A stretch of 28,204 nucleotides of DNA from a phage: the NCBI GenBank assembly GCA_021454005.1, contig GCA_021454005.1_3939.2; one strand, 5' to 3'. How positions within the stretch are numbered: position 1 is the stretch's first letter; the number at the start of each line of letters is the position of its first letter. Shown piece after piece: positions 1 through 20,182 of the stretch. The notes beneath the pieces are model-generated. The model did not search any database. It was given only the letters and a program-made list of their open reading frames with translations, and was not told where the DNA came from. The translations under genes were made by a program, and so were the position numbers.

Positions 1-191
1 AATTGATGGTTACAACTAACGTTAACACAAAGGTAAAACGTTTTTACATGCAAATTTGTGGCGTATGGTCTAGAATATCAGAATCTGACTATTGCAACTA
101 TGTAGAAACAGCTATAAACTCTAATTGCTACCTTACAAGAAATACTAAGAATTTTACAAGGCAAACAGCGATTTACTATTACGATAAATAA
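1..191 (+). CDS. hypothetical protein, 3' portion (may start upstream of the window)
   Basis: ORF in frame 3 ending TAA 189-191, immediately followed by a type-A cassette; no recognisable motif. Confidence 0.35.
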   Translation, partial: LMVTTNVNTKVKRFYMQICGVWSRISESDYCNYVETAINSNCYLTRNTKNFTRQTAIYYYDK

Positions 192-197
192 AAGTAC

Positions 198-280
198 TTT
201 ACATGGGGCTTATAGTTCGATAAAGTAAGCCCCAGATAAAGAGCTTTACCAAATTAACCCTTAAACTAGGAGATTCAAAA
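198..280 (+). promoter_or_regulatory. type-A leader cassette: TTTACA-N17-TAAAGT promoter-like hexamers enclosing hairpin GGGGCTTA/TAAGCCCC, then conserved SD (TAAACTAGGAGATTC..AAAATG)
   Basis: -35-like TTTACA 198-203, -10-like TAAAGT 221-226, inverted repeat 205-233, GGAG about 9 nt before ATG 281. Confidence 0.55.
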
Positions 281-664
281 ATGGCATATCGTGCACCTAA
301 ATTCATCAACAAAGACAACTTTCGCAACGCACTGGAGAAGTCACTTGATGAAAATTTTAAAGGCAACATTATCGTTGTTCACGCATTCAATTTTAAGTAT
401 GATGTAAACGGGAATAGAATCAACCATTACACGGCAACCATGTTAGATGGTACACTTTCAAGTGAAAAAGCCGTACTAAATGCACTGGCAGGACGTGGAA
501 AGGTATTAGTAAGATGTGATAAGAGACGTTATCAGGGCGGTGCATATGGTTATGATGATGCTGTTTACCATCTTGAAAATATGGGCTATCAAGTAGAAAA
601 AGCTGGAGCATCACAAATCATCGGCAGCGATGGTTATGTAACTATCTTCAAAATTAACAAATAA
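281..664 (+). CDS. hypothetical protein (127 aa)
   Basis: ORF with ATG directly after the conserved GGAG leader. Confidence 0.65.
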   Translation: MAYRAPKFINKDNFRNALEKSLDENFKGNIIVVHAFNFKYDVNGNRINHYTATMLDGTLSSEKAVLNALAGRGKVLVRCDKRRYQGGAYGYDDAVYHLENMGYQVEKAGASQIIGSDGYVTIFKINK

Positions 665-669
665 AGTAC

Positions 670-750
670 TTTACAAGGGGCTTATAGTTCGATAAAGTAA
701 GCCCCAGATAAAGAGCTTTACCACTCAATCCTAAATTGGAGAACTTAAAA
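670..750 (+). promoter_or_regulatory. type-A leader cassette (promoter-like hexamers + hairpin + SD)
   Basis: near-identical copy of the 198-280 cassette; TTTACA 670-675. Confidence 0.55.
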
Positions 751-1044
751 ATGGCTATTATCAAAAACGTTGTAATTACTGCAAAGACTCGTGATGACGC
801 TCGCGTTATGGCTAAAAAGTTATGCGGGAAAGTGGTTGACAATGGAAAACAATCTGCTGTAAGGTGGGGCGTGAAGGTTGATAAACAGTTGAAGTTAAAA
901 AATTCACCGATAAACCTTTTTACATGTGTAAACACTATCGGGAAGACAAATGTATACACGAAAAAGGCATACATTAGACGCGTAGCATTAACATCCCCCA
1001 TTCGTACAATGAGAAGTTATGCAAAGCTGAAAATTAACAAATAA
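751..1044 (+). CDS. hypothetical protein (97 aa)
   Basis: ATG at 751 preceded by GGAGAACTTAAAA; ORF-track start 736 lacks an SD. Confidence 0.6.
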   Translation: MAIIKNVVITAKTRDDARVMAKKLCGKVVDNGKQSAVRWGVKVDKQLKLKNSPINLFTCVNTIGKTNVYTKKAYIRRVALTSPIRTMRSYAKLKINK

Positions 1045-1049
1045 AGTAC

Positions 1050-1129
1050 TTTACAGGGGGCTTAAAAGCTGATACCTTAAGCCCCAGATAAAGAGCTTTA
1101 CCAATAAATCCTAAACTGGAGATTCAAAA
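1050..1129 (+). promoter_or_regulatory. type-A leader cassette, variant hairpin GGGGGCTTAA/TTAAGCCCC
   Basis: TTTACA 1050-1055; hairpin arms changed in a compensatory way. Confidence 0.5.
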
Positions 1130-1642
1130 ATGAAAACTGTAGACGCTACCTTTGAAGTTGTAAAAGAAAAATTCACTATTATTTATGAAGCTGTCAATTG
1201 CTTTGAAGCAAGCCATAATCTTGATAATTGGGAATTTACAGATGACCATCAAGGCGGTGTGACGATTAAAAATCCTAGCTGTCAGCGTAATGAATTTAAA
1301 TATGCAATCCCTTTACATTACAGCCTTAAACAGCTTTCAAGTGACTATGCAAAACAAGGCCGGGCAAATCCATCAAAAGAGGCTTACATCAGCTTACAGA
1401 AAGAACTAGAAAGAGATTTAGAGGCTTCAGAATATAACATTGCCGCGAAAGTTGTAGATGCAAATGGCAGCACTGTTTTAGAAAGTTTTTATATTGGTTA
1501 CGCTTTCGATTGGTGCTACAGTGACGGCGATGATTTAGAGGATAGACTAAAAGAAGAGGTGAACAACGCAGACGCAGAATCTGAAGTATTAGAACGTTTG
1601 GAATCGTTGAAAGACTCAGTGATGAATATCTTTAAGAACTAA
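1130..1642 (+). CDS. hypothetical acidic protein (170 aa)
   Basis: ORF after conserved leader; D/E-rich C-terminal half. Confidence 0.65.
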   Translation: MKTVDATFEVVKEKFTIIYEAVNCFEASHNLDNWEFTDDHQGGVTIKNPSCQRNEFKYAIPLHYSLKQLSSDYAKQGRANPSKEAYISLQKELERDLEASEYNIAAKVVDANGSTVLESFYIGYAFDWCYSDGDDLEDRLKEEVNNADAESEVLERLESLKDSVMNIFKN

Positions 1643-1651
1643 ATAGATTCC

Positions 1652-1734
1652 TTTACACGGGGTTATCAAGCTGGTAGGATAGCCCCAGATAAAGAGATTT
1701 ATCAAATAAAGCCCTTAAACTAGGAGATTCTAAA
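1652..1734 (+). promoter_or_regulatory. type-A leader cassette, variant hairpin GGGGTTATC/GATAGCCCC with -10-like TAGGAT at the conserved spacing
   Basis: TTTACA 1652-1657; hairpin arms co-vary relative to other copies. Confidence 0.5.
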
Positions 1735-2031
1735 ATGAAATTATCAAATAAAGTCCGTGAAAATTTAAGCAAGTTACTTAATAAAATTGATTTCATTGAA
1801 ACATCAAGAAATAGTCATGATGTTATGGAATGGTTACACGGAAAAATCAAAGGCCGTCGTGTAGTGATTTGCTTATGGAACAGTTGCAGGGAGTATAAAA
1901 AACCTGTATTGCAAGTCAATATTTATGATGATACTTTTAAAAGTCCTGTAAAATCTAAAAGCGATTTATTAGAATCCTATGAGATAACTGTAAATGGCAA
2001 AGTATCACGTAAAGAGGAAACACCATGTTAA
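1735..2031 (+). CDS. hypothetical protein (98 aa)
   Basis: ORF after conserved leader (GGAGATTCTAAAATG). Confidence 0.6.
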   Translation: MKLSNKVRENLSKLLNKIDFIETSRNSHDVMEWLHGKIKGRRVVICLWNSCREYKKPVLQVNIYDDTFKSPVKSKSDLLESYEITVNGKVSRKEETPC

Positions 2032-2357
2032 TGACTGGTATCACTGCAATCATTGCTATTTTCGCTCTATATAAGGCATATAAAGCCTATAATCTAGCAA
2101 ATAAGGCAACCACCCAGCAGGTTAGCAATAGCCTTGTAGAAAGCTTTCTAGGACGTTTAAGTGATGAGCAAATAAAGCGGCTAGAGATGAGCTTCAGATA
2201 TAAAGCGAAAACCTATCAGATAAGTGACATCTTCAAAGATAATTTTCAGTTAGTTGATGATTATAATTCTCTGATAAATGCTTTAAATGTCAGTGACTTA
2301 AAAGACTACTACGCTGTAATTGTTCAAGAATTGAGCAAACGAAAACAAAACTGTTGA
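2025..2357 (+). CDS. hypothetical small membrane protein (110 aa, N-terminal hydrophobic helix)
   Basis: ATG overlaps the upstream stop by 7 nt, GAGG upstream; N-terminus TGITAIIAIFALY is hydrophobic. Confidence 0.55.
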   Translation: MLMTGITAIIAIFALYKAYKAYNLANKATTQQVSNSLVESFLGRLSDEQIKRLEMSFRYKAKTYQISDIFKDNFQLVDDYNSLINALNVSDLKDYYAVIVQELSKRKQNC

Positions 2358-2446
2358 CACTGGTTTTTAGATAGATTAAATTACACATCAACGGGGAGGG
2401 AATGACCTTCCCCACTAAATAAAGTCCTAAACTGGAGATTCTGAAA
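2354..2446 (+). promoter_or_regulatory. type-B leader cassette: sigma70-like promoter TTGACA-N17-TAAATT, 5'UTR hairpin GGGGAGGG/CCTTCCCC, conserved SD
   Basis: TTGACA 2354-2359, TAAATT 2377-2382, G/C-rich inverted repeat, GGAG 9 nt before ATG 2447. Confidence 0.65.
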
Positions 2447-2605
2447 ATGTTTTGTGCAGGTGATAAAGTTGTCTGGAATGATATAGATGACGGTTTATGT
2501 ACGAAAGTTGTTGTTATCCTAGAAATTGATTATATCACTGGTGTTGCAACTGTAGCAGATAATGATATAATCTTTGATGTCTTAATTAGTGAACTGTCAA
2601 AATAA
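2447..2605 (+). CDS. hypothetical protein (52 aa; below the ORF-track size cutoff)
   Basis: ATG 2447 directly after conserved type-B leader; translated by hand to TAA 2603-2605. Confidence 0.5.
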   Translation: MFCAGDKVVWNDIDDGLCTKVVVILEIDYITGVATVADNDIIFDVLISELSK

Positions 2606-2630
2606 AACCCTTAAACTAGGAGCTTTTAAA

Positions 2631-2903
2631 ATGTACACTACTAACAATGGTCGCACCTTAAATGTCACCTTGCGTCACTATGTAGACGGTGTGATGTGCT
2701 TTGAAGATTTACGGGCTGAGCAACACATCTTAAATTGGCAAGTTGCAGGACTCCAAAAAACTGCTACAGGATACGGGAAAAAGATTCCAACCAGTTGGAA
2801 AGTATACTACGAAGGACGTTTACGCAGAATTTATCAAGATGTGCAAAGCAATAGCGCATCGAGTTACATTATAGTAAAAGGCAAAAAACTGCATTTAATG
2901 TAA
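2631..2903 (+). CDS. hypothetical protein (90 aa)
   Basis: ATG 2631 after CTTAAACTAGGAGCTTTTAAA; ORF-track start 2589 lacks an SD. Confidence 0.6.
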   Translation: MYTTNNGRTLNVTLRHYVDGVMCFEDLRAEQHILNWQVAGLQKTATGYGKKIPTSWKVYYEGRLRRIYQDVQSNSASSYIIVKGKKLHLM

Positions 2904-2908
2904 AGTAC

Positions 2909-2989
2909 TTTACAAGGGGCTTATAGTTCGATAAAGTAAGCCCCAGATAAAGAGCTTTACCACTAAATCCTAAATTGGAGAACTTAAAA
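2909..2989 (+). promoter_or_regulatory. type-A leader cassette (about 99% identical to 670-750)
   Basis: TTTACA 2909-2914; hairpin GGGGCTTA/TAAGCCCC. Confidence 0.55.
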
Positions 2990-3394
2990 ATGGCTATTAA
3001 TAACCGTGAATTATCAATTTTAAAAGCACGTTTGACCGTTAACCGGATTAATGTTATCACGTCATCAGCACCAGATGAAACACTGCAAAACATTATTGGG
3101 AAGATTCAAAGTGTTATCTTAGACGTTGAAAGCGTAAAAAACTCATTGACTGACGTTGCAGCAGGTATCACGCTAGACGGTGCACAACATGAAATGGCCG
3201 ACATGTTAGGCAAATCTAAGGTAATGAATAAAGAGTTAGATTTGAAAATGTTCCGATTTGCTGTTAAAGTGTGGTTATCTGTCGAGTATGATGCTAACTT
3301 TGCAATCGCTGACTTTTTCGCCACTTGGTTGCAGCGTAATTTGGCAAATCACGATTTCCGTAATATCTGCGATGCAATTTATGCAGAACTATAA
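2990..3394 (+). CDS. hypothetical protein (134 aa)
   Basis: ATG 2990 after conserved leader; ORF-track start 2975 lacks an SD. Confidence 0.6.
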   Translation: MAINNRELSILKARLTVNRINVITSSAPDETLQNIIGKIQSVILDVESVKNSLTDVAAGITLDGAQHEMADMLGKSKVMNKELDLKMFRFAVKVWLSVEYDANFAIADFFATWLQRNLANHDFRNICDAIYAEL

Positions 3395-3404
3395 AAAATT
3401 TTTG

Positions 3405-3497
3405 TTGACACTGGTTTTTAGATAGATTAAATTACACATCAACGGGGAGGGAATGACCTTCCCCACTAAATAAAGTCCTAAACTGGAGATTCTGAAA
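3405..3497 (+). promoter_or_regulatory. type-B leader cassette (100% identical to 2354-2446)
   Basis: TTGACA 3405-3410, TAAATT 3428-3433. Confidence 0.65.
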
Positions 3498-3701
3498 ATG
3501 GCTATTATTAATGGTTTAACCATTGAAACTACACACATCAAAGATATCAAAGTTGGTGATATAGTCCTTTCCCACGGCGTAGAAAAAACTGTCACTGCAA
3601 AGGATATCAAAGAGGATTCTTTCATGGGTAGGACTCTCTTCGGTGATTCTTATTGCTTAGGCTATCTTGCAGTTTTAAAAGTTGTCAAAAATAACAAATA
3701 A
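3498..3701 (+). CDS. hypothetical protein (67 aa)
   Basis: ORF after conserved leader. Confidence 0.55.
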   Translation: MAIINGLTIETTHIKDIKVGDIVLSHGVEKTVTAKDIKEDSFMGRTLFGDSYCLGYLAVLKVVKNNK

Positions 3702-3706
3702 AGTAC

Positions 3707-3787
3707 TTTACAAGGGGCTTAAAAGTTGATAACTTAAGCCTCAGATAAAGAGCTTTACCACTAAATCCTAAACTGGAGATTCTAAAA
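3707..3787 (+). promoter_or_regulatory. type-A leader cassette, variant hairpin GGGGCTTAA/TTAAGCCTC (G.U wobble)
   Basis: TTTACA 3707-3712; arms pair only with a G.U wobble. Confidence 0.5.
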
Positions 3788-4330
3788 ATGAAATGTTATC
3801 ACGGAACTACTCAAGAAAATTTCCTCAACCTGATTAATAACGGTGATAAACCATCAGGCGCATGGAATTGTTCGGATATGGACGGCAATTTTTACGTGTA
3901 TCCAGAAAATAAAATCTATGGCGACGATGATGAAGAGATAACATCGGAGGGCATTCAGCAAGCTCTAGGGAACGCCACTATTACGGCGGCCTTCCAGATG
4001 AAAACCCAAAATATTGTTATCTTAGAACTCGATATTCCAGATGATGAGCTAAATGATGATTATTCTTGTGATAATATGTCGAGTGTAGCAAGTTTTACAG
4101 AGTACTTTGATGTAAACTGGATTAAAAAGGTCTATACAACAGAGTTTAACGCTATGTATTCGCCTTTTTGTCTTCCTTCACTGGATAACCCAAATATGAA
4201 CTATCTTGATGAGACATTAGAACTACTTGCTAAAAGTGTTCAACAGTCGGACAGTATTCAGGTTTTTTGTGACATCATAGATACACTGACAGGAAACATT
4301 GCAGAAGAGGATTTAAAGAGCTTTTTCTAA
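3788..4330 (+). CDS. hypothetical strongly acidic protein (180 aa)
   Basis: ORF after conserved leader; runs of D/E (GDDDEE, DIPDDELNDDY). Confidence 0.65.
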   Translation: MKCYHGTTQENFLNLINNGDKPSGAWNCSDMDGNFYVYPENKIYGDDDEEITSEGIQQALGNATITAAFQMKTQNIVILELDIPDDELNDDYSCDNMSSVASFTEYFDVNWIKKVYTTEFNAMYSPFCLPSLDNPNMNYLDETLELLAKSVQQSDSIQVFCDIIDTLTGNIAEEDLKSFF

Positions 4331-4362
4331 AAACCTATGCAATCACCTTATAAACACTAATC

Positions 4363-4382
4363 AGCCCCTTGTAGGGGCTTTT
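4363..4382 (+). terminator. intrinsic terminator-like hairpin AGCCCCT-TGT-AGGGGCT followed by TTTT
   Basis: perfect 7-bp inverted repeat plus T-run, 33 nt after stop 4330. Confidence 0.55.
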
Positions 4383-4396
4383 AGAGGGCTTAAATC

Positions 4397-4630
4397 ATGC
4401 TTACAACCGTTTATCTCATCCTCTCAATTTGTAATGGTCATTCATGCGATTTTAAAGGGCTTGAAGAGTTTACAGGAAGTAAAGAAAATGCTATTCAAGT
4501 TTGCCAGATAGCAAGACAAGACTATCCCGCCAGTGATGATATACAATGTTACTTTAAGACAGAAGATGAAGACGGTATCTATTTTGACAGCGTAGATGGT
4601 CAGTATGAAATTATCATTGAAAAAGACTAG
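4397..4630 (+). CDS. hypothetical protein (77 aa)
   Basis: ORF with AGAGGG 7 nt upstream of ATG; lacks the conserved leader. Confidence 0.5.
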   Translation: MLTTVYLILSICNGHSCDFKGLEEFTGSKENAIQVCQIARQDYPASDDIQCYFKTEDEDGIYFDSVDGQYEIIIEKD

Positions 4631-4722
4631 ACAAGCCTGATAAAAATCTGTAAATTGTCAATCAACGGGGAGGGAACGACCTTACCCACTAAGTACAATC
4701 CTTAAACTAGGAGATTCAAAAA
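4628..4722 (+). promoter_or_regulatory. type-B leader cassette (TAGACA-N17-TAAATT, hairpin, SD)
   Basis: -35-like TAGACA 4628-4633 overlaps stop codon TAG of the upstream gene; TAAATT 4651-4656. Confidence 0.55.
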
Positions 4723-5064
4723 ATGGCTTATGTAACCGTAATTACCGATAAAGCTGGCGCATCTTGGTCAACTCAAGTAAGTGATAAGATGTCACCTATG
4801 CAGTGCCTAAAATACTTTGAACAGTGGAACAAAGGCGAGGACACAAGCCCCTTTCAAGTGATGCAGATTATCCATGTAGATAATGAAGGGAATAAAACGG
4901 TTTTAAATAGTGAGTACTACGCAAGCCGTTTTGAAACGAGAAGTAAAACAATGAAGCTTTTACGTGAATCCGGTTATGCCCATATCGCCGCGTTAATCTG
5001 GGATGACCTGCTAAAAAACCAACGTATCAGCTATGTAAAACCTGAAAAAATATTCATCAGTTAA
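4723..5064 (+). CDS. hypothetical protein (113 aa)
   Basis: ORF after conserved leader. Confidence 0.6.
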   Translation: MAYVTVITDKAGASWSTQVSDKMSPMQCLKYFEQWNKGEDTSPFQVMQIIHVDNEGNKTVLNSEYYASRFETRSKTMKLLRESGYAHIAALIWDDLLKNQRISYVKPEKIFIS

Positions 5065-5096
5065 TCAATAACTTACAAAAAACTTTTAAAAAAATG

Positions 5097-5125
5097 TTGA
5101 CAATACCCCTTGACATTGGTAACTT
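5097..5125 (+). promoter_or_regulatory. sigma70-like promoter TTGACA-N17-TAACTT with no gene immediately downstream
   Basis: TTGACA 5097-5102, second TTGACA inside the spacer, followed by a C4/G5 inverted repeat. Confidence 0.4.
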
Positions 5126-5193
5126 TGTTCGAGGGGGTTTATCTAAAAGGGATTCACTTAAAAGATTCTTTATAGATAAGCTCAAAAAATTAC

Positions 5194-5284
5194 TTGCAAT
5201 CAACTATCAAAACAAGTAAATTACTAATCAACGGGAAGGCAATAACCTCCCCACTAAATAAAGTCCTAAACTGGAGATTCTAAA
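5194..5284 (+). promoter_or_regulatory. type-B leader cassette (TTGCAA-N17-TAAATT, hairpin, SD)
   Basis: TTGCAA 5194-5199, TAAATT 5217-5222. Confidence 0.55.
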
Positions 5285-5815
5285 ATGAACAAATTTCAAG
5301 CTATCAACTTCATTCGTTCAAATGCTGTAATGTCTAAGCCTGTAAAAGATACATACGAATTCCGTTGTAATGGGGTACATTTCGCAACAATCACCAAATC
5401 AGAAAACGGGGCTTATTACGTTCATCGTCGTAATGTTTCAACCGTTGTAGTCTCTCACTTTATGCAAGCTGTAGCGGAATTATTACCGTTATTCTTAGAG
5501 ATTTACTTAGATGAGTGTAAAAACGTTCACAACCACGTTAAAAGCCTTTTAAACGGTTATAAAATGGCTTATGAACGCTCTATCAAGTCCTTAAACAAGT
5601 TTTACAATGCACCTGCAAACACTGTTTCAATGGCTTATGATGTAAACGGTGAGTTAGTTAGTCTCTTTAAAGTGGAAGAAATTAAACTGTATAATCTACG
5701 TCCTAGTGGTTACTCTAAGACTCTTGGTGAAGGTTTAACGTTCAATATCAAGAACTTAGAAAAAACTTTAAAAGATATTGAAAAAGATATTGACGAGACA
5801 ATAAAAAGTCTGTAA
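5285..5815 (+). CDS. hypothetical protein (176 aa)
   Basis: ORF after conserved leader. Confidence 0.65.
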   Translation: MNKFQAINFIRSNAVMSKPVKDTYEFRCNGVHFATITKSENGAYYVHRRNVSTVVVSHFMQAVAELLPLFLEIYLDECKNVHNHVKSLLNGYKMAYERSIKSLNKFYNAPANTVSMAYDVNGELVSLFKVEEIKLYNLRPSGYSKTLGEGLTFNIKNLEKTLKDIEKDIDETIKSL

Positions 5816-5881
5816 ATTGTCAATCAACGGGGAGGGAATGACCTTCCCCACTAAATAAAGTCCTAAACTGGAGTTATCAAG
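5790..5881 (+). promoter_or_regulatory. type-B leader cassette (TTGACG-N17-TAAATT); -10 overlaps stop codon of the upstream gene
   Basis: TTGACG 5790-5795, TAAATT 5813-5818 (TAA 5813-5815 is the stop of CDS 5285-5815). Confidence 0.6.
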
Positions 5882-6145
5882 ATGGAAAACGTAGAATTAA
5901 CCACACTTTTACAAATTGCAACTGACAAAGAAGATGTAGCACTGTTTCACCGTATCGAAAGCGATTTATTCAATGGTGAAATCATCAAAGAATCTTATGA
6001 AGTTGTCGGATTCAAAGATGGTAAAGCGTTTGGCTTTTTTGACCTCGACAAAGGCAACGCTGTCACAAAGTATGATGTTGTATCTTGTGAGATTCTTACA
6101 AAATACAACGAAAAAAGGCTTGCAACATACGCCAATATGCAGTAA
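5882..6145 (+). CDS. hypothetical protein (87 aa)
   Basis: ORF after conserved leader. Confidence 0.55.
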   Translation: MENVELTTLLQIATDKEDVALFHRIESDLFNGEIIKESYEVVGFKDGKAFGFFDLDKGNAVTKYDVVSCEILTKYNEKRLATYANMQ

Positions 6146-6211
6146 ATTACTAATCAACGGGAGGTGATAACCTCCCCACTAAATAAAACCCTTAAACTAG
6201 GAGATTCTAAA
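6120..6211 (+). promoter_or_regulatory. type-B leader cassette (TTGCAA-N17-TAAATT, hairpin GGGAGG/CCTCCC, SD)
   Basis: TTGCAA 6120-6125, TAAATT 6143-6148 overlapping stop TAA 6143-6145. Confidence 0.55.
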
Positions 6212-6460
6212 ATGGCAACTATCCGCGCTACTGTCAATGCCTATGGCTGTTATACTCTGGACGTTAAATTCGATATTGGTGGAACTGATGAGTGTTTTTC
6301 ATTAGTGAAGACAGTTATCAAACAAGTTATTCCAGATTATAACCCTACTGATGACTTCTGGAAAGATGCTGTAAAAGAGGCATTAAACGACGAGCATCAC
6401 TATCATTACTGGGGTGACTTGATTGTTTCCCTGTACTACAATAAACAAGGTTACAACTAA
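6212..6460 (+). CDS. hypothetical protein (82 aa)
   Basis: ATG 6212 after conserved leader; ORF-track start 6164 lies inside the leader hairpin. Confidence 0.55.
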   Translation: MATIRATVNAYGCYTLDVKFDIGGTDECFSLVKTVIKQVIPDYNPTDDFWKDAVKEALNDEHHYHYWGDLIVSLYYNKQGYN

Positions 6461-6498
6461 TCGACGCAGCGGGGCTAAATAGCCCCAGATACCTGAAC

Positions 6499-6523
6499 AG
6501 CCCCTATTTAAAGGGGCTTTTTA
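6499..6523 (+). terminator. intrinsic terminator AGCCCCT-ATTTAA-AGGGGCT-TTTTT ending the plus-strand small-gene array
   Basis: 7-bp perfect inverted repeat followed by T5; preceded by a second hairpin GGGGCT-AAAT-AGCCCC at 6470-6485. Confidence 0.7.
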
Positions 6524-6892
6524 CGTCTATCGAATCCTTATACAATCTCTTTCCATCACCTTTCCAGAATCTTCCCACTGATTCGATAGAACCTATCTCA
6601 TACCTTAAAAGCAATAACTCTATAGTCTACGCTATAACCTCTTATCAAATCAACTTAAATATAAGCCCATAACCCGAAAGGGAAGGGCAACCGTTTAAAC
6701 GCTCTATAAAGCTCTATAACAGCCTTATCAACCTAACTTAAGGGATTGCATTAACTCACCCTTAAAAGCCCTTTATAAAGCTTCTCAGAGACTTAAAAGA
6801 ATCTTATAAGGGTGTAAGCTTTATTATCTCGTTAGCTATCTTGTGAACTACTAAACAAGCCCCTTGATAGTAACTGAAAAGTATGTTATAGG

Positions 6893-6933
6893 GGCTATAA
6901 AGTTACGTAAAAGAGGCTATAAAGTTACGTAAA
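6893..6933. repeat. tandem direct repeat GGCTATAAAGTTACGTAAA x2 (22-bp period)
   Basis: identical 19-mers at 6893-6911 and 6915-6933. Confidence 0.8.
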
Positions 6934-7324
6934 TGCTAGCCCCCTTAACATCCTTTTAACAATTTCTTAACAATCCCTACATAGTTATGCTTTTAAGGCA
7001 CTTGTTAGCAACTTGTTAGCCCCTTGTTAAATCTCTGTTAAGACCACGTAAAAGCCTTGTAAGAGTCTTTGACATAGCCTTAAAAGCTCCTGTAAAGCCC
7101 TATAAAGAGCTATCTGTACATTTGGGGTGTAACTACTAGGAAGAGACTTAAAAGGGGCTATAAAGAGCTATAGAGAGCTTTTAAGAGGTATGTTTAAAGA
7201 ATCACTAAGAGGGAAAGGGAACGATAAGAAAAGAAGTAGTGACCATGTTAATAGCTTGTTAAAAAGATTAAACACTTGTTAGAAACTTGTTAATTATCTT
7301 AACAAAATAACTCTTTAAAATTAA

Positions 7325-7478
7325 CTTGTTAGCTCTTGTTAGTCATCTGTTAAGATTCTGTAAAGCCTATTCAGCACTTGTTAAGAAACTGTTAAAGCCT
7401 TGTTAGTTCTGTTAAGAATCTGTTAAGACCTTTGAAGAGTTGTTAAGAAGATGTGAGAACTGTTAAGAGATTGTTAAG
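7325..7478. repeat. array of at least 12 direct iterons (C)TTGTTA(A)G / CTGTTAAG at about 10-12 bp spacing
   Basis: copies start at about 7325, 7335, 7347, 7358, 7377, 7389, 7399, 7410, 7420, 7439, 7460, 7471; more copies at 7001-7045 and 7258-7300, some inverted. Confidence 0.75.
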
Positions 7479-8092
7479 GATATTTTAAAATTTTGCAAAG
7501 GGGATGTTACAGGGATGTTAAGGGCTACCAAGCAGATATACATCCTAGACAGATATTTTTCAGTTCCTTCAAAAACCCTAAAAAATGACTTGATAGTCCT
7601 ATTTTATAAAAATTTTAAAATTCTGAATAATTACCTAGACAGCCTTTTAAAAATACAGGTAATAACAGGCTTATAAGATACCTTGTTAGTACCGTGTTAG
7701 ACCTTGTGAGATAAGGTCTGTGAAGATATTCCTGTTAAGTTTGTTAAAACAGTCTATATAGAGGCTTAGTAATACCTAGTGAACACCTATAGAGGGTATC
7801 ATAGCTGACATAGAGATTAAGAGGTGTATAGGAGCTTCTAAGAGGGTATAGAGAGATAGTTAAGGTGATTGTATAGGTTGTTAAGAAGGCTTGTTAGAAG
7901 AGTGTTTAGATGGCTATTTAGAAGGGCTATACAGAGGGCTATTAAGACCACTAGATAGTTACTAAGATACTATATAGTACTATATAACTATATAGAGAGT
8001 AAGATTAAGAAGGTTGTTAAGAAGGATAGATATTTTGTTCACATATGATGGTGACCCAGAGGTTGGGACAACCGATAAAATTTTATAAAAGT

Positions 8093-8117
8093 AAAAAGCC
8101 CCCAATTAAGGAGGCTC
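8093..8117 (-). terminator. intrinsic terminator for the minus-strand operon (AGCCTCC-TTAATT-GGGGGCT + T5 as read on the minus strand)
   Basis: inverted repeat 8098-8116 followed on the minus strand by a U-run (A-run 8093-8097 on plus), 11 nt past stop 8128. Confidence 0.55.
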
Positions 8118-8127
8118 TTAAGATATT

Positions 8128-8676
8128 TTAAATCAGTGTTTCCAGAACTGTTTTTAGTGATGACTTGGTTGTCTGATAAAAATGAGTAAAGCCATTGTTG
8201 TTATCAAATACCTGCATCATGATATCATCTCCCTTGATTGGGTACACTCGGATATCATAGTGAAAACCATTAAAGACACAAGAACCACTACAGAATGTAC
8301 TAAAGTCAGCCACTGAGATATACTCTTCATGTCCTGTGATTTTTATACAAACACCTTTACTCGGTCTCTTAGGATTGATATCTTGCATCACAGACATACT
8401 CTGTCCACCAAGAGATACCATAGTGACCACTTTACGGTTCTTCTGTCTAAAGTACATCTTAACTTTCTGCAAAGTGTCTTCATAGAATGGATAAGACCTT
8501 TCTACAAAGATTCCTTCAAGTGGCTCTTTACCATTTTCAACTTCTCTGTTATGCCGTACTGCAAAGATAATTTGTTCGAACCAGTCAAGATTTTCTTCGG
8601 AGAGTGCTTCCCGAACATCCTTCCAGTCAAGTACTAAGTAGTTACCTTCAACTTCTTTTAAGTTATCTTTTTCCAT
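8128..8676 (-). CDS. hypothetical protein (182 aa from the internal ATG; the ORF extends to 8751)
   Basis: long minus-strand ORF; ATG 8751 has its GAGG abutting the start codon and overlaps the upstream gene by 62 nt, so Met26 at 8676 is preferred. Confidence 0.5.
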   Translation of the reverse strand: MEKDNLKEVEGNYLVLDWKDVREALSEENLDWFEQIIFAVRHNREVENGKEPLEGIFVERSYPFYEDTLQKVKMYFRQKNRKVVTMVSLGGQSMSVMQDINPKRPSKGVCIKITGHEEYISVADFSTFCSGSCVFNGFHYDIRVYPIKGDDIMMQVFDNNNGFTHFYQTTKSSLKTVLETLI

Positions 8677-8689: not shown

Positions 8690-9154
8690 TTATCGTAAAA
8701 CTTGATATTCTGGTACTGCGAATTTATTACTATTGTTCTTGATGAGGTCATCCTCTGAAACTAAAAATGTAATACCACATAAGTGTCTGTAACGACTATC
8801 ATACTCGAATATCTTAAACAGATATTTACCATCATGATAAACCTGTTGCACTTCACCTTCTGCAACAATCTCGCCTGTAATAAAATTTTTTAGTTTATAC
8901 ACATTACCAACTTTAGGTACTGTTTTCATCTCAGGCTCTTTTAGTGCTACACCTATTTTTGCATCACCGAGTAAATGAGAACTCTCAAAAGCTACGTGTT
9001 TCATATAAGCTTCTGAGCATTCCCAGATAAAACAATGTACAAGAACCTTAGCAGCATGTCTTGAACAGTTCAACTTATCACAAATTTCTGTGTACATCTC
9101 ATCTTTAGTTGAGTTGTCAAGCATTGCTCTTTGCACTATCTCTTTTACTTTCAT
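8690..9154 (-). CDS. hypothetical protein (154 aa)
   Basis: ORF with GGAGAG 4 nt upstream of ATG on the minus strand. Confidence 0.55.
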   Translation of the reverse strand: MKVKEIVQRAMLDNSTKDEMYTEICDKLNCSRHAAKVLVHCFIWECSEAYMKHVAFESSHLLGDAKIGVALKEPEMKTVPKVGNVYKLKNFITGEIVAEGEVQQVYHDGKYLFKIFEYDSRYRHLCGITFLVSEDDLIKNNSNKFAVPEYQVLR

Positions 9155-17784: not shown

Positions 17785-17861
17785 CTCTGTTTAGCTCAGC
17801 TTGGTAGAGCGTTCCGTTTGGGGCGGTAAGGCCGGAGGTTCAAGTCCTCCAACAGAGACCA
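17785..17861 (+). tRNA. tRNA-Pro (anticodon TGG)
   Basis: hand-folded cloverleaf: acceptor CTCTGTT/AACAGAG, anticodon loop TTTGGGG, T arm GGAGG-TTCAAGT-CCTCC, CCA encoded. Confidence 0.7.
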
Positions 17862-17868
17862 AATTAAT

Positions 17869-17946
17869 GTTCCAGTAGACAAAATGGTAAAGTCACCACT
17901 CTTTCAAAGTGGATATCTGAGGGTTCAAATCCCTTCTGGAACGCCA
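17869..17946 (+). tRNA. tRNA-Glu (anticodon TTC)
   Basis: acceptor GTTCCAG/CTGGAAC, anticodon stem CCACT/AGTGG, loop CTTTCAA, T-loop TTCAAAT, CCA encoded. Confidence 0.75.
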
Positions 17947-17953
17947 GTTTTGA

Positions 17954-18025
17954 CAGAAGACCAATTACAGCAAGCTTAATCTACTCATCTGACACGAAAT
18001 CGGACAAAGAAGATATTTGGTCTGG
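17954..18025 (+). ncRNA. spacer element copy 1: CAGAAGACCAA..TACAGCAAG...TTGGTCTGG (terminal 7-bp stem AGACCAA/TTGGTCT)
   Basis: conserved ends and covarying stem shared with copies at 18120, 18507, 18594. Confidence 0.5.
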
Positions 18026-18036
18026 TCATTGAGAAT

Positions 18037-18113
18037 TGCGGGTATAGAGAAAGGGCGTCTCACATGTCTCATTAGCATGGTATCGGCAGGTTCGACTCCT
18101 GCACCCGCCTCCA
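18037..18113 (+). tRNA. tRNA-Met (anticodon CAT)
   Basis: acceptor (T)GCGGGT/ACCCGC(C) with one unpaired position, anticodon stem CATGT/GCATG, loop CTCATTA, T arm GCAGG-TTCGACT-CCTGC, CCA encoded. Confidence 0.6.
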
Positions 18114-18119
18114 ATTTTG

Positions 18120-18179
18120 CAGAAGACCGTATTCAGCAACAAAATACTTTTTGCGGATAAAAGAAAAAACACGGTCTGG
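18120..18179 (+). ncRNA. spacer element copy 2: CAGAAGACCGT..TTCAGCAAC...ACGGTCTGG (stem AGACCGT/ACGGTCT)
   Basis: same architecture as copy 1 with a compensatory change in the stem. Confidence 0.5.
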
Positions 18180-18190
18180 CAATGTATTAA

Positions 18191-18267
18191 GGTTAGGAAG
18201 CACATAAGGTATGTGCGGTCGCCTGTTAAGCGAATGGCACAGGGTTCGAATCCCTGACTAACCGCCA
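18191..18267 (+). tRNA. tRNA-Asn (anticodon GTT)
   Basis: acceptor GGTTAGG/ACTAACC (one mismatch at 7-66), D stem GCAC/GTGC, loop CTGTTAA, T arm CAGGG-TTCGAAT-CCCTG, CCA encoded. Confidence 0.65.
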
Positions 18268-18275
18268 AATTAAAT

Positions 18276-18363
18276 GTGTCGTTATCCCGTAGATGGTAGC
18301 GGTGGGGACTGTAAATCCCTTGTCATTGAGACTCGGTAGGTTCGACTCCTACACGGCACACCA
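18276..18363 (+). tRNA. tRNA-Tyr (anticodon GTA), long variable arm
   Basis: acceptor GTGTCGT/ACGGCAC, loop CTGTAAA, variable stem GTC-ATTGA-GAC, T arm GTAGG-TTCGACT-CCTAC, CCA encoded. Confidence 0.7.
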
Positions 18364-18368
18364 ATAAA

Positions 18369-18445
18369 GGCTATGTAGTTTAACTGGAGAAAATACTCCC
18401 CTGTCACGGGAGATGATGTGAGTTCAAGTCTCATCGTAGCCGCCA
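18369..18445 (+). tRNA. tRNA-Asp (anticodon GTC)
   Basis: acceptor GGCTATG/CGTAGCC, anticodon stem CTCCC/GGGAG, loop CTGTCAC, T-loop TTCAAGT, CCA encoded. Confidence 0.75.
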
Positions 18446-18506
18446 ATTTTGAGAGGGCTATTTAGCCCCTCCCTTAAAGAGTTCTTACGAGTATTCTTTA
18501 AAGGAG

Positions 18507-18580
18507 CAGAAGACCAAATACAGCAAGAATGTATGAAATTTCAAGCCAATTTAATTTTGAAAATTTAAAACTTGGTCTGG
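18507..18580 (+). ncRNA. spacer element copy 3: CAGAAGACCAA..TACAGCAAG...TTGGTCTGG
   Basis: same architecture; stem AGACCAA/TTGGTCT. Confidence 0.5.
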
Positions 18581-18593
18581 CTCAACAAATTTA

Positions 18594-18725
18594 CAGAAGA
18601 CCGTTTACAGCAAAACTTAAACAATCTATTTCTCCGGTAAAGAAAAGGCGAAGGTTCGATTCCTTCACTCGGCAGATGTCGAGTTGGTGTAATGGTAGCA
18701 CTTAAGATGATAAACAACGGTCTGG
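18594..18725 (+). ncRNA. spacer element copy 4 (long form) with terminal stem AGACCGTT/AACGGTCT, containing tRNA-half-like hairpins
   Basis: CAGAAGACCGTTTACAGCAAA at the 5' end and AACGGTCTGG at the 3' end; interior carries a T-arm-like hairpin, an acceptor-like hairpin and a D-arm-like hairpin. Confidence 0.45.
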
Positions 18726-18726
18726 T

Positions 18727-18870
18727 AATTATCTTTGTAGATAAGTTATTAAGCTTACATGTGAGTATGCGACCACAAAGGGTGAAAGGGTAAATTCTAG
18801 ATTTAAACCCAAAAAGGCACATCGCTACAGACCTTAAGCAAGTCTGGGTAGCTTATCTACAAAGATAATT
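18727..18870. repeat. 19-bp perfect inverted repeat (AATTATCTTTGTAGATAAG / CTTATCTACAAAGATAATT) flanking 106 nt
   Basis: arms at 18727-18745 and 18852-18870; could be a long-stem RNA or a miniature inverted-repeat element. Confidence 0.6.
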
Positions 18871-18874
18871 TAAT

Positions 18875-18950
18875 GGAAGTGTAGCAGAATGGTGATGCGG
18901 CAGACTTTTAATCTGACAGGCGATGGGTTCGAATCCCTCCACTTCTACCA
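18875..18950 (+). tRNA. tRNA-Lys (anticodon TTT)
   Basis: acceptor GGAAGTG/CACTTCT (G1.U72), loop CTTTTAA, T-loop TTCGAAT, CCA encoded; close paralog of the tRNA at 20101. Confidence 0.65.
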
Positions 18951-18954
18951 ATAT

Positions 18955-19031
18955 GGTTCAGTCGCAGATAAGGTAATGCAAGGGTCTCATAAGCCCTATG
19001 AATGTGGGTTCGATTCCCATCTGAACCTCCA
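18955..19031 (+). tRNA. tRNA with anticodon CAT (Met, initiator, or Ile2/lysidine type)
   Basis: acceptor GGTTCAG/CTGAACC, anticodon stem AGGGT/GCCCT (three G-C pairs), loop CTCATAA, T arm GTGGG-TTCGATT-CCCAT, CCA encoded. Confidence 0.65.
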
Positions 19032-19032
19032 A

Positions 19033-19108
19033 GCTGGTATAGTTAAGAAGGTTATAACACTCCCCTGATAAGGGAACATCGGTGGTTCGATTCCACCTAC
19101 CAGTACCA
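19033..19108 (+). tRNA. tRNA-Ile (anticodon GAT)
   Basis: acceptor GCTGGTA/TACCAGT, D stem GTTA/TAAC, loop CTGATAA, T arm GGTGG-TTCGATT-CCACC, CCA encoded. Confidence 0.7.
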
Positions 19109-19123
19109 ATTTCAATAAAGTTG

Positions 19124-19152
19124 TTGACATTGAGATGTGACTACTTTATAGT
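19124..19152 (+). promoter_or_regulatory. sigma70-like promoter TTGACA-N17-TATAGT inside the tRNA array
   Basis: hexamers at 19124-19129 and 19147-19152; about 200 nt of unassigned sequence follows before the next tRNA. Confidence 0.6.
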
Positions 19153-19355
19153 AACCTTAGTTTTCGTTGCGTAGCGTCTATTTTGCAAATTTAAAATAAA
19201 TGCAAACGACAATGTTTTTCTGGCAGTAGCTTGATAGGCTAAACACCAGTGAGGTCTTCCAATCCCTCATCAAAGAATTTGGCGTACTAGCCCACGGTAT
19301 GATTAATAAGGTGGGCATCTTTAAGGGCTTTCTAAGAGAGTCTTTAAAGATTAAT

Positions 19356-19432
19356 GCACCCTTAGTTCAATTGGATAGAGCAACGGTCTTCTAAATCGTT
19401 AGTTACAGGTTCGAATCCTGTAGGGTGTGCCA
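19356..19432 (+). tRNA. tRNA-Arg (anticodon TCT)
   Basis: acceptor GCACCCT/AGGGTGT, D arm GTTC-AATTGGATA-GAGC, anticodon stem ACGGT/ATCGT, loop CTTCTAA, T arm ACAGG-TTCGAAT-CCTGT, CCA encoded. Confidence 0.75.
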
Positions 19433-19450
19433 ATTAGTTAGCAGATTACT

Positions 19451-19490
19451 TAGACGACCTAAGCGGGTCTTCCTGTAGGGAGGTGGTCTG
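19451..19490 (+). ncRNA. possible degenerate fifth copy of the AGACC...GGTCTG spacer element
   Basis: TAGACGACC...GGTGGTCTG with 6 of 7 stem positions pairing; weaker match. Confidence 0.25.
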
Positions 19491-19574
19491 TATCTCATGT
19501 TTTCCAGAACATGTAAATAATCTGAGAAGGGGCTTTACAGTGTTGAGATAATACGGTAAGCTTCGAATTACAGT

Positions 19575-19657
19575 ATGGGACGATGTTAAGACTCTAAGGC
19601 ATGAGCAACGGCCTCCAAAACCGTTTCAAAGGGGTTCAACTCCTCCGTCCCATGCCA
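19575..19657 (+). tRNA. tRNA-Trp (anticodon CCA), atypical (about 7 extra nt between acceptor stem and D arm)
   Basis: acceptor ATGGGAC/GTCCCAT (7 of 7), anticodon stem ACGGC/ACCGT with loop CTCCAAA, T arm AGGGG-TTCAACT-CCTCC, CCA encoded; D region does not fold canonically by hand. Confidence 0.5.
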
Positions 19658-19670
19658 AAGTCTTATTAGG

Positions 19671-19758
19671 GGTAGGTAGCGGCTAATGGTAGCCAAACTG
19701 TCTTGAAAACAGTTGCCACTGTAGAGATACGGTGAGGGTTCGACTCCTTTACTTACCG
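19671..19758 (+). tRNA. tRNA-Ser (anticodon TGA), long variable arm
   Basis: acceptor GGTAGGT/ACTTACC, anticodon stem ACTGT/ACAGT, loop CTTGAAA, long variable arm, T-loop TTCGACT; CCA not fully encoded. Confidence 0.7.
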
Positions 19759-19914
19759 CCTAATAAGATTTACACCGTCCATGCTTGCTCGCATTTTCGG
19801 TTTATCCCTCGTGTATTGTCGTACACTGATAAAGCACCTAGTAGGTGTCACGGAGAAGAGATAATATCAAGCTCTCCAAAGGTTCTAGTCACCGGATTAA
19901 ACAAGACTATGCAA

Positions 19915-20093: not shown

Positions 20094-20100
20094 AATTAAT

Positions 20101-20176: not shown

Positions 20177-20182
20177 GACATT

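Follow-up and report, generated by a model that had tools for sequence, protein, structure and literature searches.

The array of small genes and its cassettes

The window, i.e. the whole stretch of 28,204 nucleotides that was analysed, comes from a Felixounavirus with about 91% identity to Escherichia phage finno. It carries a tandem array of small + strand genes, which begins upstream of the window; the first gene is represented by its 3' end, and its finno homologue is an ORF with its start at L002:1986, after a type-B-like promoter (TTGACT-N17-TAATAT) and a hairpin. No function is known for any of the array proteins tested. Two families of repeats (types A and B), each about 90 bases long and comprising a predicted host-type promoter, an RNA hairpin and a ribosome site, are confined within the window to the array at 281-6460 (Table 1). 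The initial annotation had placed both families here, in front of nearly every small gene; both are present with six copies each, and the wording narrows to 12 of the 15 small + strand genes (six type A, six type B), since those starting at 2025, 2631 and 4397 have no cassette. In finno, 12 cassettes and 13 RBS modules all lie inside one 6.5-kb array, with one further relative at rIIA/rIIB. The array ends at the sole canonical intrinsic terminator that a terminator scan found on the + strand of the window (6499-6523), whose Felix O1 counterpart is t23 (PMC3185647).

Table 1. Positions of the cassettes and related features in the window. For type A the hairpin column gives the upper hairpin; the ATG column gives the first base.
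Feature	Position	Strand	-35	-10	Hairpin	Lower stem, 3' strand	SD	ATG	Remarks
First array gene, 3' end	3-191	+							Start and promoter upstream of the window; finno homologue compared
Type A cassette 1	190-283	+	TTTACA 198-203	TAAAGT 221-226	205-233	234-248	269-272	281	Lower stem, 5' strand 190-196
Type A cassette 2	662-753	+	670-675	693-698	677-705	706-720	738-741	751	Lower stem begins with stop TAA 662-664
Type A cassette 3	1042-1132	+	1050-1055	TACCTT 1073-1078	1057-1085	1086-1100	1118-1121	1130	
Type A cassette 4	1644-1737	+	1652-1657	TAGGAT 1675-1680	GGGGTTATC/GATAGCCCC 1659-1686	1687-1701		1735	Diverged
Type A cassette 5	2901-2992	+	2909-2914	2932-2937	2916-2944	2945-2959		2990	
Type A cassette 6	3699-3790	+	3707-3712	TAACTT 3730-3735	3714-3742	3743-3757		3788	
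Type B cassette 1	2340-2449	+	TTGACA 2354-2359	TAAATT 2377-2382	2393-2413		2434-2437	2447	A-tract; ATCAAC 2387-2392
Type B cassette 2	3391-3500	+	3405-3410	3428-3433	3444-3464		3485-3488	3498	
Type B cassette 3	4614-4725	+	TAGACA 4628-4633	4651-4656	4667-4687			4723	
Type B cassette 4	5180-5287	+	TTGCAA 5194-5199	5217-5222	5233-5252			5285	
Type B cassette 5	5776-5884	+	TTGACG 5790-5795	TAAATT 5813-5818	5829-5849			5882	
Type B cassette 6	6106-6214	+	TTGCAA 6120-6125	TAAATT 6143-6148	GGGAGGT/ACCTCCC 6159-6177			6212	
RBS-only linker AAAACCCTTAAACTAGGAGCTTTTAAAATG	2606-2633	+							Before gene 2631-2903; shared 3' module without promoter or hairpin; D7 family
Array end	6470-6523	+							Reduced type A upper hairpin, GGGGCTAAATAGCCCC followed by AGATACC; then terminator AGCCCCTATTTAAAGGGGCT + TTTTT

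Type B cassettes

A search for the type B hairpin core, with up to three mismatches allowed, gave four matches in the window against 0 expected, and two more diverged copies are found at 5233-5252 and 6159-6177. All six copies contain a TTGACA-like hexamer, N17 and TAAATT; cassette 2 has 98 nt identical to cassette 1. Among 98 distinct copies conservation is limited to the TTGACA-like -35 (T97 T83 G94 A67 C56 A65), the TAAATT -10 (T96 A97 A92 A86 T78 T97) and ATCAAC, with the 17 spacer positions free, and the -35 is preceded, at 5-10 nt, by an A-tract. The fixed hexamers, unconstrained spacer and A-tract together form a sigma70-like pattern, which bears out the description of the repeats as promoter/hairpin/RBS cassettes; we infer that type B is a sigma70-type promoter, with predicted activity. 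The annotators of vB_EcoM_ASO1A likewise labelled type B sites as promoters. The hairpin follows 2-4 nt past the predicted start and precedes the ribosome site common to both families; its covariation is modest. The stop codon of the upstream gene lies within a promoter hexamer in four copies, not in three as first counted: TGA 2355-2357 (in TTGACA), TAG 4628-4630 (in TAGACA), and TAA 5813-5815 and TAA 6143-6145, both in TAAATT.

Type A cassettes

The type A core AGATAAAGAGCTTTACC, searched with up to three mismatches, has six matches, all on the + strand (at 234, 706, 1086, 1687, 2945 and 3743; chance expectation 0.14). TTTACA-N17-TAnnnT is present in 6/6 of these copies, and the second hexamer is TAAAGT (three copies), TACCTT, TAGGAT or TAACTT; cassettes 2 and 5 are 99% identical. 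Looking at distinct type A cores, 107 of 108 keep TTTACA followed by TAnnnT, at N17 in 100 copies and N18 in seven, with 12 different -10 hexamers. The spacing is kept though hairpin length varies (28, 29 or 30 nt), as the initial annotation had proposed for the -10-like hexamer: 17-18 nt are kept through the changes in hairpin length. Where a cassette has no 3' strand of the lower stem, a -35-like hexamer persists, separated by 1 nt from the G-run that follows (in Kolesnikvirus, TTTACA or TTGCAA), and in the finno relative between rIIA and rIIB the hexamers around GGGGCTTTGAAGCCCC match the consensus perfectly (TTGACA-N18-TATAAT). The -10 of type A is a weak match (3-4 of 6 positions), and promoter-like sites as a whole are hardly more frequent than expected in DNA this rich in AT (35 found, 26 expected). 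The lower stem overlaps TTTACA in part, so pairing could explain some of the conservation of this hexamer.

Concerning the structure, the hairpin first recognised, GGGGCTTA/TAAGCCCC, is real, but it is part of a full structure of about 60 nt, which extends from the upstream stop codon to a point short of the RBS. Its 24 positions comprise 12 in the lower stem, a 3x3 internal loop and 9 bp in the upper stem, and this three-part hairpin is the minimum-free-energy fold of the type A copies (z -3.7 to -5.0; cassette 2: MFE -21.6, z -5.0). The wobble pairing in two copies, reported earlier together with compensatory changes of the arms, is seen as U.G at 1659-1686 and one G.U pair at 3714-3742; in the lower stem of cassette 4 (TAGAT/ATTTA) there is a compensatory change from G-C to U-A. 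Across 60 distinct stems 97.0% of the cells are paired, two-sided changes occur in 82 cells compared with 20.3 in shuffles (reached by 0/500 shuffles), and the covariation score is 0.216 compared with at most 0.034 when the partners are slid, counts which are inflated by the kinship of the copies by descent and which refer to a structure drawn from the same sequences. Pairing is maintained through changes at four upper-stem pairs and at two to three lower-stem pairs. G.U pairs take up 109 of 1200 stem cells (9%) and fit the + sense only. The Kolesnikvirus copies keep the fold with GGUG/CACC arms (z -6.6). The strong covariation and the many wobble pairs argue for the proposal that the type A hairpin acts at the RNA level.

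Modularity across phages

Six gene families are preceded by type A in some phages and by type B in others (e.g. MAYRA: 11 type A, 9 type B). The presence or absence of genes between phages is bounded by cassettes, with the ends of the gene indels falling inside them; phage Barry is without the MKTVD gene and has a chimeric cassette, with the crossover in the shared 3' part. The cassettes appear to be the recombination joints at which related phages gained, lost and swapped genes. The view of a highly modular early region agrees with this modularity and with RT-PCR of Felix O1, in which the expression of several genes of the array is maximal at 5 min (PMC3185647).

Proposed function and alternatives

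Based on the repeats, the covarying structure, the pattern of hexamer conservation and the shuffling demonstrated above, we consider it probable that both repeats belong to the PeSL (promoter-early stem-loop) kind of composite regulatory cassette, here in a Felix O1-like myovirus. Each cassette would combine a host sigma70 promoter with a G-run/C-run stem-loop and a standard RBS module, and would turn the small gene behind it into a self-contained expression unit. In type B, the A-tract, TTGACA-like -35, N17 and TAAATT would lead to a transcription start inside the invariant ATCAAC, and the hairpin GGGGAGGG/CCUUCCCC, 2-4 nt from the 5' end, would be in a position able to shield the mRNA from 5'-end-dependent decay. 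In type A, a putative promoter, TTTACA-N17-TAnnnT, is superimposed on the 60-nt hairpin: the lower stem would contain the -35, the upper stem the spacer, and the loop the TA of the -10, with the predicted start at the A of AGAUAAAG, directly 3' of the upper stem. Since the hairpin is upstream of this predicted start, the complete hairpin would exist only in read-through RNA, so it would act there and not in the 5' UTR of its own transcript. Its most likely role is to set or protect the 3' end of the upstream message, through attenuation or double-strand-specific processing, while the promoter would restart transcription. As long direct repeats, nearly identical and sharing their 3' part, the cassettes would also offer portable homology for gene deletion, insertion and re-heading. 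Promoter activity, start sites and hairpin effects on RNA are here deduced from sequence. A literature search for transcript-end data from any Felixounavirus returned none.

Type A could instead be a site of RNA processing or stability only, with no promoter, within a polycistronic early transcript from the type B promoters; we regard this as unlikely. An RNase III-like cut on the 3' side of the internal loop would leave the upstream mRNA with a protective 3' hairpin and give the downstream one a defined 5' end, and the resemblance to promoter hexamers would be a by-product of stem and loop constraints. The three-part architecture suits a double-strand-specific nuclease, the hairpin spans the stop codon to just before the RBS, the early RNase III sites of T7 are also a repeated hairpin family adjoining promoters, and the weak -10 hexamers point the same way. 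Every type A copy follows a gene and a type-B-like promoter heads the array, so read-through RNA would be on hand for each copy. However, when the hairpin length changes, the TA and T of the -10 keep their distance from TTTACA and not from the 3' arm, and two invariant bases in the otherwise free loop have no obvious RNA reason. The -35-like hexamers also stay put in relatives without a pairing partner, with perfect TTGACA/TATAAT at rIIA/rIIB, and types A and B interchange before the same genes. Moreover, processing and promoter functions of type A are compatible, not exclusive.

Slightly less probable again is that the hairpins are terminators or attenuators insulating each gene, the RNA-stability roles proposed above then being wrong. 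WebGeSTer labels the type B hairpin a terminator in the vB_EcoM_ASO1A, XTG1 and KhF2 records, UUAUAAU follows the rIIA/rIIB relative, and a PeSL stem-loop cut lacZ expression about as much as rrnB T1 (PMC2839356). The terminator scan, however, flags 6499-6523 only, and it found no U-run after a type A or type B hairpin in the window, so neither is a canonical intrinsic terminator; termination at the type B hairpin would abort the cassette's transcript a few nt after the predicted start. Very improbable, in our judgement, is an action of the palindromes in DNA with an incidental RNA fold, as cruciforms, recombinase targets or operators at which a dimeric phage or host protein shuts off early transcription. 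The hairpins and the promoter hexamers do overlap, as would suit a repressor, two window copies fold about equally well on the reverse strand, and the PeSL authors speculated that a recombination protein might bind GGGG...CCCC (PMC2839356). Yet a protein site predicts conserved bases, whereas type A shows compensatory pair changes; the 9% of G.U cells would become A.C mismatches on the other strand or other cruciform arm, and the arms differ between genera (GGGG/CCCC vs GGUG/CACC) with the fold retained.

Comparison with known systems

PeSLs are mobile regulatory cassettes of the T4-like phages RB49/phi1, T4/PST and KVP40/nt-1 (PMC2839356, Arbiol et al. 2010; PMC4122927, Comeau et al. 2014). 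Like the Felix-type cassettes they have an upstream stop codon within an AT-rich stretch, a sigma70-type -35/N17/-10, a GGGG...CCCC-type stem-loop with G-T pairs (between the boxes, over the -10 or after it) and an SD and ATG at the 3' end; they cluster in a hyperplastic region of small genes of unknown function, with indels and replacements between close relatives at the cassettes, and the T4/PST promoter consensus TTTACW-N17-TAYWAT resembles type A. The Felix-type cassettes differ in belonging to the Ounavirinae lineage, with no sequence homology to PeSLs, in forming two highly uniform families rather than many variants, in sharing one RBS module and in the 12-position lower stem of type A, which gives a predicted two-turn hairpin from the stop codon into the new transcript.

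The T7 early region reportedly contains the RNase III sites R0.3, R0.5, R1, R1.1 and R1.3, whose approximate positions are attributed to Dunn and Studier in 1983. These are likewise repeated intergenic hairpins with an upper stem, internal loop and lower stem, lying between small early genes and adjoining promoters, and the type A hairpins would similarly provide every gene with a separate mRNA that carries a 3' hairpin. The T7 sites have no sequence similarity to the Felix-type hairpin, in which cleavage is putative; their loops measure 3-5 nt and, unlike type A, their hairpins contain no promoter. Belasco and co-workers are said to have described 5'-terminal stabilising stem-loops of E. coli mRNAs, of the ompA 5' UTR type, which protect against 5'-end-dependent decay. 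The type B hairpin, 2-4 nt from the predicted 5' end, would have the geometry reported as protective, with the difference that its start site is predicted. Two classes of short intergenic repeats before genes of halovirus HF2 were shown to act as promoters; these are archaeal promoters, and the abstract describes no hairpin or RBS module (PMC8707807).

In the repeat list of Felix O1, type A figures as a 57-bp repeat and the type B promoter as a 39-bp repeat, and the same paper states secondary promoters and temporal control as unknown (PMC3185647). The features DR_1 to DR_9 of the wV8 GenBank record have the same sequences as the cassettes. These direct repeats were recorded as repeats only, without a promoter, structure or recombination role. 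The principle is a known one, extended here from T4-like phages to the Ounavirinae, in which these repeats, previously listed without interpretation, match the PeSL pattern.

Genomic setting of the small-gene array

Megablast of positions 1-8000 returned 261 phage records, nearly all of them Felixounavirus phages of Escherichia, Salmonella, Shigella and Citrobacter, and the top match is Escherichia phage finno, with 91% identity across the full 8 kb. The window belongs to Felixounavirus (Ounavirinae). The region is a series of plus-strand hypothetical genes in annotated relatives; after the array come a terminator, a gene-free stretch, minus-strand genes and a tRNA cluster (the window holds 26 tRNA genes; Felix O1 is reported with 22). 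Ten array proteins were searched: none has a Pfam family, nine match only PHROGs families of unknown function and one has no PHROGs match. The window opens partway through the array's first gene, which in finno is preceded by a terminator and a type-B-like promoter (TTGACT-N17-TAATAT), with a long A/T tract before the promoter.

The gene-free stretch lies between the plus-strand array and the minus-strand genes. It is crowded with YTGTTAR motifs, many of them phased at 10-11 bp, and also has GCTATAAAG repeats and long imperfect inverted repeats. The stretch looks like an iteron or protein-binding array and is possibly an origin or a regulatory hub; the finno annotation has only two bare repeat_regions there.

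Coordinates of the features in the window
Feature	Position	Details
Small-gene array	281-6460	15 genes
Near-identical last codons before type A	651-666, 1031-1046, 3688-3703	AAA ATT/ATA AAC AAA TAA
Type A cassette A3	1042-1132	
Type A cassette A4	1644-1737	
Short hairpin	4363-4379	AGCCCCTTGTAGGGGCT then TTTT; after gene 3788-4330
Gene without cassette	4397	own GAGGG ribosome site
Extra promoter-like site	5097-5125	TTGACA-N17-TAACTT
Region of extra site and second hairpin	5094-5185	second hairpin 45 nt, fold z -4.0
Array end: stripped-down type A upper hairpin, then terminator	6470-6523	hairpin GGGGCTAAATAGCCCC then AGATACC; without both hexamers
Predicted terminator	6499-6523	plus strand
Gene-free stretch	6530-8100	about 1.6 kb without sizeable ORF
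YTGTTAR cluster	6956-8020	27 of 50 window matches
Inverted repeats	6941-6986 with 7458-7503	
tRNA cluster	17785-22927	plus strand, 26 genes

Occurrence of the two cassette families

A repeat finder recovered both cassette families in the window. The type A core AGATAAAGAGCTTTACC is present in six copies (0.14 expected), and the type B hairpin core in four copies at up to three mismatches (0 expected), with two further diverged copies; the two families of six copies each that the initial annotation had described were therefore confirmed. Outside the array, the rest of the 28-kb window contains no further copy. The initial claim that nearly every gene of the array is preceded by a cassette holds for 12 of the 15 genes and fails for three. 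GGAG is found 5-9 nt 5' of the ATG in all 12 copies. The proposed reading as promoter, hairpin and ribosome-binding site (RBS) is supported, with refinements. The short hairpin upstream of the cassette-free gene at 4397 is a terminator in the annotation of the related phages Barry and wV8.

A scan of viral contigs with a type A 16-mer gave 120 loci. Profile searches of these loci, finno and Barry yielded 165 type A and 126 type B hits; taken together with their flanks, 148 of the former and 114 of the latter are distinct. BLAST with a single cassette found type A in 289 phage records, including those of a Citrobacter phage (Michonne) and 29 Erwinia phages, and type B in 251 records. In finno the 12 cassettes are all located at 18.7-24.9 kb of the 87.5-kb genome and share one 6.5-kb stretch with the full set of 13 RBS modules common to both types; one relative is found elsewhere, at rIIA/rIIB.

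Type B cassettes

Alignment of 98 distinct type B copies, anchored on the first hairpin base, restricts conservation to three blocks; the 17 positions between blocks 1 and 2 are free. An A-tract is found 5-10 nt 5' of the first hexamer (A in 54-87 of 93 copies). Such base conservation is typical of a genuine sigma70 promoter preceded by an UP-like element. In four copies, one more than initially reported, a hexamer contains the stop codon of the gene before it.

In all copies the -10 ends 10 nt 5' of the hairpin, which places the predicted start within ATCAAC; the hairpin would then be located 2-4 nt from the 5' end. Hairpins that stabilise a 5' terminus are those whose stem-loop lies within about 4 nt of the 5' triphosphate end. 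The type B hairpin is preserved in very different forms (GGGGAGGG/CCTTCCCC, GGGAGGT/ACCTCCC and GGGGTAAGCAAGCCCC), and true covariation is modest. Some GenBank records label the hexamers as a promoter and the hairpin as a terminator; the latter label is unlikely, since the hairpin lies 3' of its own predicted start and lacks a U-run. Type B very probably acts as a strong early promoter and gives the transcript a 5' hairpin.

Conserved elements of the type B and type A cassettes
Element	Location	Composition
Type B block 1	-39 to -34 from hairpin	T97 T83 G94 A67 C56 A65 (n=98)
Type B block 2	-16 to -11 from hairpin	T96 A97 A92 A86 T78 T97 (n=98)
Type B block 3	-6 to -1 from hairpin	ATCAAC, 94-98/98
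Type A lower stem, outer	starts with upstream stop codon	6 bp UAAAGU/GCUUUA
Type A mismatch	between 6-bp and 5-bp stems	1x1
Type A lower stem, inner		5 bp CUUUA/UAAAG
Type A internal loop		3x3 CAN/AGA
Type A upper stem		9 bp
Type A terminal loop		10-12 nt
Type A pair 5	upper stem	C-G 30, U.G 28, U-A 1
Type A pair 7	upper stem	U-A 42, A-U 18
Type A pair 8	upper stem	A-U 40, U-A 14
Type A pair 9	upper stem	A-U 16, C-G 16, U-A 12, U.G 11
Type A columns 5-50	lower stem	G-C 42, U-A 10
Type A columns 6-49	lower stem	U.G 53, U-A 4, C-G 3

RNA structure of the type A cassettes

All type A copies folded in 76-nt windows adopt an identical minimum-energy structure, with energies from -18.8 to -21.9 kcal/mol and z-scores from -3.7 to -5.0. 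For pair counting, the copies were anchored on their flanks and the loop was replaced by a fixed linker, because plain MAFFT places a gap in the 3' arm of the 28-nt class that would miscount pairs. Among the 60 distinct stem sequences, which are related by descent and from which the structure itself was derived, 97.0% of 1200 cells are paired, and both sides have changed in 82 cells compared with 20.3 in shuffles (a value reached by 0 of 500 shuffles). The covariation score of the same set is 0.216, against at most 0.034 with slid partners.

Wobble pairs account for 109 cells in total. As they become A.C mismatches on the opposite strand, the selected structure is that of the plus (mRNA) sense; a strand-wise comparison of folding energies did not separate the strands, two copies folding equally well when reversed. 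The covariation and the wobble pairs bear out the suggestion that the type A hairpin is an RNA-level structure. In Kolesnikvirus (Erwinia and Cronobacter phages) the three-part fold is kept with GGUG/CACC in place of GGGG/CCCC and longer upper stems, with z-scores down to -6.6; by prediction, this fold is independent support for the structure. The stripped-down type A hairpin at the end of the array directly precedes the only canonical terminator of the region.

Promoter, hairpin or both in type A

The sequence CTTTACA is invariant in 108 of 108 aligned distinct type A cores, with CTTTATA in one further diverged copy outside this set, and the upstream stop TAA lies 5-8 nt 5' of the -35. The sole invariant loop bases are TA, 17 nt (100 cores) or 18 nt (seven cores) past TTTACA; the pattern TAnnnT, with T four bases past TA, is present in 107 of 108 cores as twelve different hexamers. 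Hairpins shortened by one base have lost it 3' of the -10 hexamer, and those with an extra base have an 18-nt spacer. Some relatives have no 3' strand of the lower stem, which leaves CTTTA without a pairing partner, and a -35-like hexamer (TTTACA or TTGCAA) is still found one base before the G-run. The relative at finno rIIA/rIIB (L128, 30660-30715, minus strand), TAAAGTGC-TTGACA-A-GGGGCTTTGAAGCCCC-T-TATAAT, has the perfect consensus TTGACA-N18-TATAAT around a 6-bp GGGGCT/AGCCCC hairpin and no lower stem. Other registers are seen in Kolesnikvirus, among them TAAAAT within the hairpin loop, and a true terminator with TTTACA in the loop and TATACT 18 nt downstream. Such terminator/promoter overlaps, with the hairpin GGGGCTTTACAGCCCC and a T-run, are located at about 9010-9100 in Erwinia phage vEam_PM_27 (L125) and about 6205-6295 in L126. 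The hexamer patterns are those predicted by a promoter and not by RNA pairing alone. Judging by the -10, transcription would start at the A immediately 3' of the upper stem, so that the promoter's own transcript would lack the hairpin, which would be present only in read-through RNA. Type A probably combines a weaker promoter with a surrounding, well-supported RNA hairpin whose effect falls on read-through transcripts.

Intrinsic termination was rejected for both types: neither has a U-run, the sequence next to the hairpin on its 3' side being AGAUAAAG in type A and ACUAAAUAAAG in type B, and the terminator scan of the plus strand of the window found a single site, at the array end. A permissive Rfam scan of 1-8200 gave nothing in the array, and 1-6500 had no match even at E<=1. 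Concerning cleavage, type A resembles the early RNase III sites of T7, a repeated hairpin family likewise adjoining promoters: it has about two turns of imperfect, covariation-supported double-stranded RNA with an internal loop (6 bp + 1x1 mismatch + 5 bp + 3x3 loop + 9 bp), and it is the added lower stem of the predicted fold that gives it the dimensions of an RNase III substrate. It is conceivable, albeit rather unlikely, that the same 60 nt serve as a sigma70 promoter in DNA and as a two-turn hairpin in read-through RNA that RNase III, or a different nuclease specific for double strands, cleaves on the 3' side of the internal loop, at the very A where the promoter starts. The downstream mRNA would then be identical whether it arose by read-through or by new initiation, and the upstream mRNA would retain a protective 3' hairpin. 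If this dual use were true, gene dosage would be independent of cassette order and the genes could be shuffled freely.

The extra promoter-like site is wrapped in a CCCCU...GGGGG hairpin and followed by a second hairpin; no ORF is found between this region and the next type B cassette. It may encode a small RNA, be a leader or be what is left of a cassette.

Exchange and recombination of cassettes

For six downstream gene families the type of the preceding cassette differs between phages; among them are MAYRA (11 A, 9 B), MAYVT (4 A, 15 B) and MKCFH (17 A, 2 B). In ordered maps of 23 loci, genes are present or missing between conserved neighbours and are always bounded by cassettes. The window's MKTVD gene is absent from Barry, where a single chimeric cassette takes its place; this cassette matches A3 in its left flank and hairpin and A4 in its RBS allele. 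These three lines of evidence uphold the initial description of the region as modular. Cassette-to-cassette fusions with the gene removed were found at two loci; these are head-to-tail fusions (L005, about 7348-7430; L048, about 1009-1108) in which the gene is excised exactly from the ATG (…AAAATG|CTTTACATGGGG…). TAAAATG at the end of the RBS is similar to TAAAGTG at the start of the cassette, and gene-precise deletion could occur by microhomology. Three unrelated genes upstream of type A share near-identical last codons; as these run into the cassette, the repeat, and hence the recombination unit, extends a few codons into the coding sequence. Both types are recombination joints.

Comparison with known cassettes

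Felix O1-like phages are used for Salmonella typing and biocontrol. The cassettes offer concrete promoter and RNA-element candidates for about 12 early genes per Felix O1-like genome, and, as each packs a promoter, an RNA end structure and an RBS into a self-contained unit of about 90 bp, they could serve as parts for phage engineering. The Felix O1 paper lists both as direct repeats, assigns them no function and describes promoters and temporal control as unknown (PMC3185647). The wV8 record marks the same repeats as DR_1 to DR_9, and the wV8 paper mentions neither repeats nor promoters. Our search of an incomplete literature collection found no transcript maps of Felixounavirus or Bas63, no earlier functional reading of the repeats and no application of the PeSL concept to this group.

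The design principle and evolutionary role of such cassettes are already described elsewhere, for the promoter-early stem-loops (PeSLs). In PeSLs the stop codon of the preceding gene lies in an AT-rich sequence, the promoter is sigma70-like, the stem-loop is of the GGGG...CCCC type, contains G-T pairs and takes one of several registers with respect to the boxes, and the 3' end carries an SD and ATG; PeSLs cluster before ORFans in hyperplastic regions, and their copies recombine with each other (PMC2839356, PMC4122927). Types A and B likewise have sigma70-like boxes about 17 bp apart, an AT-rich stretch with the upstream stop codon 5' of the -35, and an SD and start codon at the 3' end. The stem-loop spans the spacer and -10 in type A and follows the -10 in type B, with other registers in relatives. 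The Felix-type cassettes are also concentrated in a hyperplastic region before genes of unknown function, and indel and replacement junctions between close relatives lie within them. PeSLs were described from T4-like myoviruses, whereas the window is from a Felixounavirus of the Ounavirinae; given this host lineage, we class the Felix-type cassettes as elements of the PeSL kind from a different lineage and not as homologues. The PeSL authors stated that evidence for such plasticity in other viruses was still lacking and raised the question themselves (PMC2839356). Types A and B extend the PeSL-like composite cassettes to a new phage lineage, and cassette shuffling of the PeSL type would not be limited to T4-like phages.
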